In this document: positions 36,801-42,800 of the stretch, in pieces
How positions within the stretch are numbered: the first letter of the stretch is position 1
Layout of the letters: every line of letters begins with the position of its first letter
NCBI RefSeq assembly: GCF_001447785.1
Contig: NW_015169784.1
Coordinates: 725,828 to 789,827, forward strand
Reading direction: 5' to 3'
DNA: 64,000 nucleotides
DNA from: Gekko japonicus
Lineage: Eukaryota
The notes under the pieces: generated by a model
Seen by the model: only the letters and a program-made list of their open reading frames with translations
What the model was told of the DNA's origin: nothing
Databases searched by the model: none
Position numbers and translations under genes: made by a program

Positions 36801-39800
36801 CAGAATCATTATCTTATGACAACAGAATCATTATCTTGTGGGAATGTTTGTGCTCAACAGGTACCTGGTGTTATTTAACCATCTGTCAGAGGCTCAAATT
36901 TAACTCCAATGGACAATCACAGTAGCATTATTCTGAAAGCAGAGTATTGTTAGGCAACAACATTAAAATACTGAAAGTACTTACCACGTTAAAACATTTC
37001 ACTCTTCAGATACAATTTTCACCTGTATTTTCATGACTGCCAAGGCAAATAATCACACTTTGTATGAAAAGAGTGACTATGGAAGTGTAATTCTTGTCTG
37101 TAAAACATTTGTTGTGTGCTAGTTATTTCACAGTCAACAAAAAGAAAGCCCCCAGTGATACTTACAATGCCTGCACTGAAATGAAGAAGGAAGCTTGTGC
37201 ATACATATGCATATATGAAGCTGTCTTATGGAGTCAGGTCGCTAGTCAGTATTGTCTGTCGAGACTGGCAGCAATTCATCTGGGTCTTGGGCAGAGAAAA
37301 GGTCTTTTCCAACACTGGCTTTTTGAGATCCTTGGAGTGTAAAGGCAGAATCTGGGTCCTTCTATGTGCAAAATGCAAGTGTTCAGTATGGAAAATTCTA
37401 GATCGGATGTCCTTTTTTCTATTTAGTATTGGAGACACTTTAAATGACTTCAGTCTTTCTGCCATAATACATGTGGAAGAGCAACAGTTCTTTTCTTTTT
37501 AGGCAGGAAATTCTCTTTGATTATGAGCAGTACGAATATCATGGGACTTCTGTAAGTATAAAATATATGATGCTTAAACTGAAGACTCCACCACGTAACT
37601 TAAAGAACTTGATGTTGTTGCTCTTGCAGTAGGAGACTTTGTTTTTGTGTAAAGTAGACTGAGATGCACACACATATATACACATACTTGATCATTCTTT
37701 ATAAACTAACTATGGTATTAGAACTTCCAAGTGCTACACATTTGGAAATGCAGCTGTGCTTTAAATTCTAGTGGTTGAAGGTGTAGAAGGTGCGATCCAT
37801 TTAAAAGTTGCTGCAGTCTCTACATGCTGACACTAACCTATAAAGCCCTACCAATATATTGATTAACCATTTGTTCCCATGTGTATTTGCCATTAAAACC
37901 CGCTGTTAAATTTTGTTGCTAAAGCCATGCTCTGAGTGCATCTTAAGTAACCTCAAGGACCAGCTAGTTAGAAGGGAAGAATACATCATTTAAAAATAAA
38001 TAAATAAACGTGCTTTGTGGAGAAGTAAGACTAGCATTTCGTATAAGTTTATATGTGAACAAGAACTGTCTGAACAGTAATGGGGAGGGAATAGTGCGCA
38101 CCAAGCAGGCCACACAAGGTGCTGAATAGATTTGTTTCCATTTGATTCTTCCTTTCCCTTCCCAGTGTTGATCCATTATTTGTTTCTGTTTGTGAACTGA
38201 CATCTGGGGCTCTTTACTTTTCTAGTCTGCCATGATGATGTTTGACTTGGCATGGATAATGTCCAAAGACTTGAATGATATGTTGTGGTATGTAGTCTAA
38301 TTTTTTTTTTGGGGGGGGGGGCCTTTGTGTGTGTGTGATAAGTCATTTTGCTGGCTTGATTTCAGAGGCTTCTTAATGCTGCTGTTCTAGTAAATAAAAA
38401 ATAAAATGGTATAAAATTCTGATAGATAGAAATGGACTATAAGGGCTTCTGATGACCCTCCCGTGTTCCAAGGTCCTATGCTTGCCCTGAAACCTGACTT
38501 TTTAAGATGTTATCATATCCTCTATCTGTAGAAGTCTTCCACATCCAGTATGGATGAGATGTGAATTTCATTTCCGTTGAAAGCAAGTGCCAGGTGTAAA
38601 AGAAAATGTCCTTGATACTCAAGCTGTAAATGTTATTTAAAGTAGAAGTAAATAAATTCTGGATGAAAGCTGTACACAGTTTTGTGTAATTTAAAGTGCA
38701 TCCAGTCCCCATAAAGTTTATATTATGTAATCTTTTAAGTATTTGTACTTTATTAAAAACTGATTGGACTATGGTTGAATACTCCAAAATTCTTGATTTC
38801 TTTTAGGTGGGCTATTGTTGGGCTAACGGATCAGTGGGTTCATGACAAAATCACTCAGTAAGTGATCAACTTTTTTCTTTTATAACAAATTGATTAATTA
38901 TAGTAAACACCAAATTGCTTTTGTTCAAATTACACATCCTCATTGTGCATGCAGAGTTATCAACAATACAGTACTTAACTTTGGAGCTTGTGTGTACTCA
39001 GAGCGCTGTATGAACAGCATTCCTATGGAACGTGAACACAGTATTTAGTCTGCTTAAAGTATTTTCATCCCACCTTTCCATCCACATATGGAACCTTTAT
39101 TACTGATTTTGTTACCAATAACAGTAATAAACATTAAGAAAATGAAATCCATTTAAACACAGCAGCAAAACCAAAAACAGTCAAGGGAATCTGCTCTGTG
39201 TTGAAATTTGCCTGGCACCCACTTCTAACATTTTTTAAGTACCCAGGAAAAGTCAATCCTGTTCATTTGTGTGTTTTCTTTTTTAGTTTTTGCCTTATGT
39301 TTTATTGCTGGATCAGTTTTGTTTTATGGTTATAATGTTGGAGGCTTATTTGCTTGGCATTAATTAATTAAATTGGAATATTTTTTAAAAACCACTCTCC
39401 CCTGTGAAGACAGGGCTCAGGGAGCTGTACAGCAATAGAATATAATGAATGCATAATTGAAACAATCAAAATACAATAAAAACACAACTATTGGCCTACA
39501 TAGATGACGCGCAGAACTTCTAGTTGTGCCACTGCCTCAAGGGGGAAGGCAGGGAGTAGGAGTGCCAGACAGATGGAACTGTCACTGTCCCCAGCCAAAC
39601 GCCCAGCAGAACATCTCTGCTTTTCAAGCCCTGTGGAACTGCATAATGTCTTTTGACACTTGCAATTTTTTTAAACGACTTTGCTTTGAATCCCCGTTCT
39701 ACCATGGAAACTCATGGGTGACCTTTGGCCAGTCACACATTCTCGGCTTAGCCTCAGAAGGCTGTTAGAGTAAAATGGGAGAAATGATGTTATAAGCTGC

Positions 39801-42800
39801 TTAGGCTCTCCTTGGGAGAAAAGCAGGATATAAATATCTAAATAATAAAGGCTGGCTAAAAATTTAAATGAAGTAGTGAATCAATGAAAGACAGAATACC
39901 TAAAGTAATAAGGGAATCAGAAATCATCAGTTGCCAGTCTCTAAAAGGATGACTTGACCTGACATTCATAACTGAGTTGAGATGGAACCAGGGAAGAGAG
40001 TTCTAAAGGCTCAGTACCACCAACACAGCTGTGACCATGAATCTGCATGTTGCTGGCAGAAAATCGCATTCATCACTTCATGATACTGCTGAAGGCACTT
40101 TACAGCAGACATTTTATTAATGACCCAATTTCTGATTTTCCCCCCACATTGTATATACCTTAAAGCATTTTTAGTAGGTGATACATGATTCTTGGAAAAG
40201 CCAGACGCAGAACATCTCTGTGGAACTGCATAATGTCCTGCAGGGCACGGAAGTTGTTCGGCAGAGAGTTCCACTGGGCTGGAGTTCCACCAGGTCAAGG
40301 ATAGCCAGATATCCCTTAGACTGGGGACCACCAGTATGTTCTTTGCTGCCGAGTGTAATGCTCTTCTGGGGGTATACAAGGAGAGGCGGTCCAGAAGACA
40401 TGGGTCCCAGACCATTAAACCAATTTGGGCTAAGCCAACTGTTTATTATGACTGTCTCAATCTATAGGCTGTTTGTCTGAAAAATGTATCTAGACTTCCG
40501 TATCTTTGTGTATAATGTGTGGATTTTCTTGGATTGTTTTGACACTTGCAATTTTTTTAAACTTTTGGTTTAAATCAGTATTTGTAAATTGCCTTCAGTG
40601 GCTAGGAAAGGTGCTATATAAACTTTAATTATAAAAGTGTTCTCATTATTAGGCACTTTGGGGATCTGACGACTTTGCTTTGAATCCCCGCTCTGCCATG
40701 GAAACTCATGGGTGCCCTTTGGCCAGTCACACATTCTTGGCTTAGCCTCAGAAGGCTGTTAGAGTAAAATGGGAGAAATGATGTTATAAGCTGTGTGGCG
40801 GAACGGGCCCGCGTCAGCTGGCAGACCCCGCTCTGCCCACCCCTCCTTTGCCTGGCCTGGCACCTGAAGGGGCAGTTTTTAACCACTGCCTCCAGGTATT
40901 GCTGCCACCACTGTCCCTGTCTTGGGCTCTGGTCAGGCGGGACAGCCTCCTAACCTCCCTCTGATGTCACTTGGAACCCACCTTGGGGCTTCCTGGTAAT
41001 CTTTGGGGCTCCCCTGGAGAGTTGGCAAATGACCATTTTGCCCTTATTCTCCTCCTTAGGGAGTCCCCAACCCACTCTTAGCATGTCCAAGCGGCTGGGG
41101 GAACTATGTGGTACAGAGGGACTTCTCAGGGTCAACAGTAAAAGAATTTATTTTGAAAACACTTAACTATATACAGGCATCTCTGATGTGCTAGTTCCTA
41201 GCAGTGATGGTCTGTATTCTTGGTGCTTAGGGGGCCACAGTGGGAGGGTTTCTGGAGTCTGGCCCTGTTGGTGGACCTCCTGATGGCACCTGGGTTTTAG
41301 CCACTGTGTGACACAGAGTGTTGGACTGGATGGGCCATTGGCCTGGTCCAACGTGGCTTCTCTTATGTTCTTATATGCACGAAGTGGGGTTTTTTTTACA
41401 AAGAAAAGATCAAAGCTGGGATCTCTCACATGAAGTCCGTTCTGCCACCTCTGGGCCCTGCCACTTTTTTACCACCTCATTCTTTACCATGTGTGCACCA
41501 AGCTTCAGTCTCTCTCATACTCAGAGGTAGAAGCCATTAAACTTTACAGAGAAAGTTTCCACTGTTCCAGAGGGCTACTGGCAGCCAGGAGCGAGCAAGC
41601 TTCAGCAGTGCTGTTGGGAGTCGGGGCCACTCAGCGCATCGTTAGCCAGGTCTGGGCTGAGCGGCTCGTTGCACAACATGAGCCACTCAGCTGGCTTGCC
41701 GCTGGGTCAGTTTAACTTCCCAATCATATGAAGAAGGCAGCAGCTTCTTGGTGCAGAAATGCATTGTGGATTTCCTACTGTATATGCAGGAATTATGATC
41801 GAATGCTGTAGATCATTTCCCATGAAAATCTTGTCTTAAAAATCATTTCACTAATTCCAAAAGAGAATATTTCATAAAATTTTTGTGTGTGTTCTACAAA
41901 ACTCCCAGTTTTTCAGCTGGGGAATTTGAATAAAATCATTAGAGGGTGGGAGGGGACACCCCCCCCCCCCCCGGGGCCTTCCAATCCTTACGCGTTAGCT
42001 AGTTTGTATCTGCCTTCATCAGGTCTGGAAAAGTAAAGAACAGGCGCAATATTACTTAATTCCCACCTGGGCAGTTTTTCGTGTAATCATGGGATATAGG
42101 TCAAAAGTTCACATCTATAACAATTTCATTTTAGCTTATAGTGGTGGTGATATAGACATGATAATAGGGAGAAGTTGATTATTTTAAATCCATATATAAT
42201 TGACTTTTTACACCGAAGATACTCTAATTGTTGTTCCTGATTCCTATTGATGGTTGTAGCTTGTGTCTTGCACTCTATCAACACTGGTCTCTATATGAAA
42301 GCCTCTGTAACACTTGTTACACTTCTGCTAGCCTCAAGCTGTGGTCAGTGCAAGGCCAGAAGAAACTACAGGAATTCTTTGCTGATATGGGGTGAGTCAG
42401 AAGTTCAGGACAAACTCTGTCACCTGGGGTGTTTGGGAGAATCTGTTTCGTCAACAGAATGCAGCCATTACAAACAAGCAATCACAATTGGAATTAAGCA
42501 TGGAGATATTTTTTTTAATTTTATACACAAGTTTGAATTACGATATGTACTTTATAATGTTAGCTCCGTATGAGTTATAATACCTTGCCAAGTTGAAGCA
42601 ATACAAGAGAAGTCTCTTCCCCCCACCCCCCTTTGAGAAACATGGAGATAACTATGATGATTCTGATCTCTATCCCAGGAACTCTGGGGATAAAAGAGGA
42701 CTCTTCTACTAAGATTCCCTCAGAATACTCTCTCTCTCTCTCTGTTTTAAATAGCTTACCTTTGAAGCAAGTAAAACAGAAATTTCATTCTATGGACATT

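Follow-up and report, generated by a model that had tools for sequence, protein, structure and literature searches.

The question raised by this locus is how CDC45, an essential DNA-replication gene whose product is a co-activator of the CMG helicase, can pass in a gecko sequence directly from exon 9 to exon 11. In the window (the whole 64-kb stretch of DNA that was analysed) the CDC45 coding region lies at 27797..47709 on the plus strand, as determined by tblastn with the database proteins P0001 and P0002, splice sites and the Pfam family PF02724, and it comprises all exons save exon 10, with exon 15 present twice. The remaining exons are all open and have normal splice sites, and UFD1 is found at 19881-20045, head to head with CDC45, an arrangement also known from the human genes. 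Exon 9 (38807..38857, plus strand) ends in phase 2 (CA/GTAAGT), and exon 11 (42260..42391, plus strand), located by tblastn and splice-site reading, starts in phase 2 (AG/C TTG). The preliminary description had claimed that exon 10 is missing from 38858-42259 and that the resulting 9-to-11 join is in frame (phase 2-2); both points hold, the first by tblastn and an exon-10 profile, the second from the phase 2 reading of the two flanking exons.

As the tblastn query we used P0002, a gecko CDC45 of 563 aa, with P0001 as a second query. P0002 recovered every CDC45 exon but exon 10 at 27797-47706, and its residues 233-272 matched nothing in the window except for 21 aa on the minus strand (35072-35134), a hit at chance level. 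The profile, built from 38 distinct exon-10 peptides, scored no higher than 5.0 bits anywhere in the six-frame translation of the window, to be compared with 25.0, 48.2, 36.9 and 87.6 bits for control profiles of exons 7, 8, 9 and 12 at their own sites. Exon 10 is conserved like its neighbours, with a mean identity of 0.86 in a range of 0.71-0.94 for the 18 exon blocks. Since the control profiles score at their sites and the window contains zero N, the absence of exon 10 from the window is genuine, and is not a detection failure. When six long frames of the window and the 40-aa exon 10 were scanned against Pfam, none of the seven gave a match (0/7).

The exon was found elsewhere in the same assembly, on the unplaced 507-bp contig G000:C91668 (L004), at positions 25-144 (tblastn E of 3.8e-20). 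The tblastn search suggested in the preliminary description, exon 10 against both window and assembly, is thus blank for the former and positive for the latter, where C91668 carries the only significant match, in single copy. The exon on this contig is stop-free, 120 nt long and placed between AG and GTATCC, with both splice sites intact; its peptide is 95% identical to that of P0002, and 39/39 residues are identical in three other geckos. As exon 10 is intact on C91668, it is absent from the scaffold and not from the genome. That the window might conceal exon 10 in a diverged or frameshifted form is ruled out by tblastn and the profile, together with this intact copy.

The contig is tied to the CDC45 intron on its 3′ side by unique 29-nt overlaps, through a second orphan contig, G000:C24824 (L033). 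The 29-mer that ends C91668 has two occurrences in 2.49 Gb, C91668 itself and one end of C24824, and the far end of C24824 is an exact 29-nt overlap with window 41917-41945. The alignment of C24824 with window 41180-41945 has 733 matches and 21 mismatches; the contig is a second allele of this stretch, which forms one arm of a bubble (41180..41945), with C24824 as the other arm. The scaffold junction sits at the base immediately after the 29-mer common to C91668 and C24824. From this pattern of overlaps we read a de Bruijn bubble attached to the exon-10 contig, and C91668 would be positioned directly before 41180. On the 5′ side, neither DNA searches nor exact patterns revealed a contig of the assembly that joins the start of C91668 to window 40200, and each of the two end patterns has a single occurrence; such similarity searches are weak for short overlaps, and one of them missed the 29-nt overlap between C91668 and C24824.

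Two alternatives are a loss of exon 10 fixed in the species and a second, degenerating CDC45 copy, with C91668 coming from another locus; in their favour, the very same 40 aa are missing from P0001, a database protein of 523 aa. Its sequence matches the window exons and the His junction exactly, which means that it was most likely predicted from the same sequence and is not independent evidence. No full-length CDC45 from the same species was found among the best 120 of 835 proteins or in three clusters. Against a fixed loss or a second copy, exons 10 and 11 have one significant match each in the assembly (the others for exon 11 reach only E 1.95 and 4.9), UFD1 adjoins the gene, C91668 is tied to this very intron, and exon 10 is kept in the congeneric gecko protein P0126 and in six proteins from five other gecko genera. 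A second CDC45 locus was also sought with PF02724, which gave two weak extra matches, both below the cut-off (C11284, 30.3 bits; C2255, 28.2 bits), and with the single significant exon-11 match such a locus was rejected. Moreover, exon 10 encodes the loop contacting Psf2, and in Xenopus extracts DNA synthesis is strongly inhibited when the N256-C267 loop within it is replaced (PMC4873980). We consider a fixed loss or degenerating copy extremely improbable. The preliminary description had left the choice between an assembly misjoin and a true deletion affecting a copy that is non-essential or degenerating; the single exon 11, the UFD1 neighbour, the open exons and the presence of exon 10 in other geckos speak against the second, while the misjoin is upheld by the intact exon 10 on C91668, the 29-nt overlaps and the DNA runs that depart from the scaffold at 40200 (see below).

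Exon skipping offers a different route to the same product, namely a minor in-frame isoform coinciding by chance with the protein predicted from the scaffold. The phase 2-2 exon permits skipping, and the chicken isoform X2 (P0068, 526 aa) has a clean 9-to-11 junction, as in P0001. However, skipping leaves the absence of exon 10 from the scaffold DNA unexplained, and a clean skip is seen in only 2 of 125 homologous proteins, P0001 and P0068, with the full exon in 118 of them. For human CDC45, the accessible portion of PMC13546744 gives only two disease missense variants for exon 10 and no exon-10 skipping. Regarding transcripts, the RNA run X22 has coverage in the bins holding exons 8, 9 and 11-15, and the tables of joints and loose ends are filled with repeats; among the 15 joints listed, of 108, there is no joint from 38857 to 42260 and no RNA read joining exons 9-10 or 10-11, which in so repeat-filled a list weighs neither way. 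In the run X21 the depth on the CDC45 exons is almost zero. Skipping as the source of the missing exon has, in our judgement, a negligible probability.

The left boundary of the defect lies within intron 9, where a stretch of sequence is laid twice. At 39047..39361 the intron has a second allele on the orphan contig G000:C127610 (L018; 7 mismatches in 315 aligned positions), and it is followed by the first part of an interspersed repeat (39359..39650), whose other genomic copies continue directly into the part at 40218-40418. The segment 39595..39799 (version A, likely haplotype A) matches a second version at 181 positions, with 5 mismatches; this version B (40201..40793, likely haplotype B) stands in tandem and carries 299 and 108 extra bases. 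Between the two lies unique intron-9 sequence (39800..40200), at the end of which we place the left misjoin (40200/40201). Of the 24 public runs listed, none is a long-read run and none is registered as RNA. We compared four of them, the DNA runs X1 and X2 (one study, two samples), the run X21 and the RNA run X22, with window 38100-45300 at 90% likeness, and the X1 and X2 records reported here are those among the matches listed (with 94,550 further pieces and 1,435 further loose ends). X1 record 3, 960 nt long, agrees with 39816-40200 and continues for another 575 letters, and X2 record 10 stops matching at the same base, 40200, with 497 further letters, both extensions being known by length alone. 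The two public DNA runs thus disagree with the scaffold at 40200.

Version B is followed by an LTR-type repeat (40794..41180, plus strand), of which the initial 387 nt are present; by comparison with its other copies it is cut from a length of ~890 nt. These copies have TG...CA ends and 5-bp target duplications, and they extend to ~890 nt, so that the idea of an entire element at 40794-41180, with its target duplication at 41180, was discarded. The right junction, between the LTR and 41181, shares at most 1 base with the LTR. Neither junction (40200/40201 or 41180/41181) has an N gap, and the scaffold carries N runs elsewhere.

The scaffold is also defective further along the same gene. Exon 15 occurs in two identical copies (44502-44585 and 44949-45032, plus strand) within a tandem two-copy segment at 44132..45038 (plus strand, 460 and 447 nt), which has 6 mismatches between copies. 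X1 record 7 joins 44115 directly to 44592, and the segment is therefore single in X1; depth in the public DNA runs at 44125-44365 is 11.9 and 0, compared with ~80 and 30-36 immediately downstream. Five near-tandem two-copy segments are present in the 64-kb window and one in the flanking 100 kb, which indicates that such duplicates are unevenly frequent. The assembly consists of 191,500 contigs, and the paired copies differ by an allele-like 1.3-2.8% of mismatches.

A real deletion carried by one chromosome has to be weighed here. Allele B would have lost 39800-40200, exon 10 and ~360 nt beyond it, with the inserted LTR running straight into intron 10; this is very unlikely. Its product would be an in-frame CDC45 40 aa shorter, tolerated because allele A is intact. 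Such an allele agrees with the right junction, which has neither N nor a long overlap, and with the single unbroken path formed by version B, the LTR and 41181 onward; deletions can also accompany LTR insertions. However, entry from the LTR predicts that C91668 would end without a fork and form one contig with C24824, whereas the two are split at the exact base where the scaffold resumes, and 29-nt overlaps stand at both ends of C24824. In addition, the scaffold is wrong both at 40200 and at exon 15 within the same gene, and the LTR breaks off after 387 of ~890 nt, as expected of a gap-filler that stalls within a high-copy repeat. A wild-gecko allele with an LTR-associated deletion, encoding a CDC45 without the whole alpha9-beta6 contact loop for GINS (Psf2), is very unlikely; if true, it would show naturally how much of the CMG insertion domain can be lost before a vertebrate cell no longer tolerates it, and its product would equal the annotated chicken splice isoform.

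We estimate at about 95% the probability that the missing CDC45 exon 10 is an assembly artefact, which likely arose when this heterozygous intron, rich in repeats, was misjoined. Counting against this reading are the unbridged 5′ side of C91668, the N-free junctions, the overlap of at most 1 base with the LTR at the right junction, and the uneven frequency of near-tandem duplicates. In the proposed sequence of events, alleles differing by 2-3%, by indels and by an LTR insertion would have broken the short-read de Bruijn graph into bubbles. The scaffolder would then have set allele A, ending at 40200, directly ahead of allele B, starting at 40201, leaving the common exon-10 contig unplaced, and gap closing would have extended 387 nt into the allele-B LTR before joining the bubble arm downstream of C91668. 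In the correct arrangement, exon 9 up to 40200 would be followed by a short unseen piece, C91668, either allele from 41180, and exon 11. Both chromosomes of the animal likely carry CDC45 in its normal, full-length form.

An assembly misjoin of this kind has precedents. In false gene loss of the fragmented-gene or missing-exon type, as PMC9516821 describes it, the exon is likewise recovered by an exon-wide search on another small scaffold and a shortened protein is predicted; those cases were confirmed by long-read assemblies and mapped reads, whereas here the evidence consists of contig-end overlaps and contigs from two DNA runs. In false heterotype duplication and exon gain, diverged alleles likewise lie in tandem or on small scaffolds (PMC9516828), and the allele pairs here are 39595-39799 with 40201-40793, the two copies of exon 15, and the orphan contigs C127610 and C24824 with their window counterparts. 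Gaps are typical of false duplications in the same text (PMC9516828), whereas no N separates the copies here, and we infer that the gap was closed. Skipping of human CDC45 exon 15 in Meier-Gorlin syndrome 7 is also an in-frame loss of one exon, but those cases (PMC13546744) are real hypomorphic splice variants of exons 15/16, whereas here exon 10 is present in the genome. Compared with vertebrate CDC45 (PF02724) in general, the gecko exons, including the orphan exon 10, are ~95-100% identical to gecko orthologues and the UFD1 neighbour is common to both, so that the sole departure is the order of pieces in the scaffold and nothing biological.

A real loss would have mattered, because exon 10 holds the Psf2-contact loop (PMC4873980) and two human disease missense variants (PMC13546744). 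Most likely, the absence of CDC45 exon 10 is not a real biological feature. P0001 is hence unsuitable for studies of CDC45 evolution or as proof that the GINS-contact region is dispensable, and apparent exon losses and duplications in this assembly should first be checked against small unplaced contigs and 29-nt end overlaps. The value of the finding is one of curation, the gene itself being most likely biologically ordinary.

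The best protein matches of the window are gecko CDC45. With the 563-aa gecko CDC45 (P0002) as tblastn query, all exons of the gene map within 27797–47706 (plus strand), except for residues 233–272. This gap, together with a profile of 38 distinct exon-10 peptides that reaches a maximum of 5.0 bits across the six frames of the window, against 25–88 bits for the profiles of four control exons, confirms the claim of the preliminary description that CDC45 exon 10 is missing from the window sequence. The exon bounds it gave also hold, with exon 9 at 38807–38857 and exon 11 at 42260–42391 (both plus strand), and phase 2 on both sides.

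An exon-10 peptide search of the kind proposed in that description, with the P0002 peptide as query, gave no match in the window and, in the whole draft assembly (G000; 2.49 Gb, 191,500 contigs), a single one, which is stop-free and lies on the unplaced 507-nt contig C91668 (26–145, 95% identity, E 3.8e-20). The exon itself occupies 120 nt (C91668:25–144), preceded by a pyrimidine tract with AG and followed by GTATCC. The peptide of its 39 whole codons is the same as that of three other geckos, and differs by one residue in two more genera.

A search with window positions 41400–42300 recovered a second orphan contig, C24824 (816 nt). In reverse orientation, its opening 29 nt are those that close C91668, and this 29-mer is found only in these two places in the assembly. 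From base 30 it aligns with 41180–41945 of the window (733 matches, 21 mismatches, 6 gaps). At the opposite end of the contig, exactly 29 nt coincide with 41917–41945. In short-read assemblers, a contig with equal exact overlaps on either side is typically a single arm of a de Bruijn bubble. Judged from these overlaps, C24824 is such an arm, the other being the scaffold sequence, which begins at the base directly after the shared 29-mer (T, versus A in C24824). The preceding LTR-like repeat would continue with a T here as well, and the junction may therefore be shifted by one base in either direction. We infer that both alleles depart from the end of the contig holding exon 10, and hence that both carry the exon.

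In place of exon 10 the scaffold has two segments. The first, 40201–40793, is a second version of 39595–39799 (181 matches, 5 mismatches, 299 + 108 extra bases), and its 299 extra bases contain the second half of a repeat that has its first half at 39359–39650 and is unbroken in other copies. The second, 40794–41180, is the opening 387 nt of a high-copy repeat, with the same start as in 19 other copies, where the element continues. This repeat is LTR-like, because in many copies CA and a 5-bp target duplication mark its end at about 890 nt, and at one locus (L064) two copies lie ~3.5 kb apart. It is young, with copies 92–97% alike (L045–L064); it adjoins the version at 40201–40793 and not that at 39595–39799, and may be an insertion polymorphism in intron 9. 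For the intron stretch 39047–39361, a second allele lies on a third orphan contig, C127610 (7 mismatches in 315). The mismatch levels of the three version or allele pairs agree (2.2%, 2.7% and 2.8%), as expected if one haplotype pair were behind all of them. Local diversity is high: across 38340–43561, allele pairs and public runs are ~1–3% off the scaffold in CDC45 introns, with several indels.

Three observations speak against an assembly misjoin and leave a small chance of a real heterozygous deletion adjoining the LTR. Neither junction has an N in the sequence (scaffold N runs do exist 32–36 kb downstream), neither assembly DNA nor exact-pattern searches yielded sequence that would connect the 5′ side of C91668 with 40200, and near-tandem duplicates number five in the window versus one in 100 kb of flanking sequence. 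A deletion is opposed by the fork where C91668 ends, and we consider it very improbable.

Four of 24 listed public runs were aligned to 38100–45300. The DNA runs X1 and X2, two samples from one study, show many site differences from the window. Among the pieces listed, a 960-nt contig built from X1 (record 3) matches 39816–40200 with its first 385 letters and continues for 575 more, and one from X2 (record 10) matches 39829–40200 with 497 more letters on that side; both matches end at the base where the second intron version starts. By its length, the sequence beyond 40200 could include exon 10. In the RNA run X22, bins with exons 8, 9 and 11–15 have depth and the unique intron has almost none, indicating that CDC45 is transcribed.

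Exon 15 is present twice, in identical copies, within a tandem segment of 460 + 447 nt (44132–45038). X1 record 7 passes from 44115 straight to 44592 with one copy, and the depth at 44125–44365 is 11.9 in X1 and 0 in X2. The duplicate is a false exon gain, and the scaffold therefore differs from independent DNA at two places in CDC45. Three more near-tandem two-copy segments, at 2917–3416, 7659–7925 and 59236–59874 (0.4%, 3.3% and 4.4% mismatches) are probably similar allele-in-tandem errors, judging from sequence.

We thus regard the missing exon 10 as an assembly misjoin and no real feature, with a probability of about 95%. Of the two origins proposed earlier, the misjoin stands on the C91668 exon, the 29-nt overlaps and the break at 40200, whereas the real deletion or degenerating copy is countered by the bubble fork and the single exon-11 match. 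According to PMC9516821, missing exons and genes fragmented among scaffolds are common false losses, and ~26–60% of genes in older assemblies are hit by some false-loss type; the features tested at the CDC45 locus agree with the fragmented-gene type described there. PMC9516828 reports that alleles can end up in an assembly as tandem or separate copies, and also reports false exon gains; the locus resembles these cases, but without a visible gap between copies.

A fixed loss of exon 10, or a second CDC45 copy, is the least probable explanation, and exceedingly so. Across the assembly, a single significant match was obtained for exon 11, and a UFD1 exon (19881–20045, minus strand; PF03152, E 3e-15) lies head to head with CDC45, indicating a single orthologous locus. 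Matches to PF02724 below cut-off (C11284:25674–25838 and C2255:130944–131288) fall in long open frames (~500 aa) and the acidic region of the profile, and are probably compositional. Scored with the profile, exon 10 is complete in 118 of the 125 homologues compared; the others comprise three that start after the exon, one with unrelated sequence at that place, one with half the exon and two clean skips, P0001 and P0068. The latter, a putative chicken isoform (X2) in the database, skips exactly exon 10, in frame. P0001, a 523-aa database CDC45 with the same 40-aa gap, agrees with the window exons and the His junction; it adds no support, being most likely predicted from the same sequence, and the misjoin has likely been passed on to this model as an annotation error. 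A congeneric gecko protein (P0126) retains exon 10, which corresponds to about residues 236–275 of human CDC45. According to PMC4873980, an acidic loop within this range (N256–C267) docks on the GINS subunit Psf2, and GINS-interface mutants strongly inhibit DNA synthesis; PMC13546744 lists two missense variants in exon 10 for Meier-Gorlin syndrome 7. The docking loop and these variants make a fixed loss of the exon improbable beforehand.
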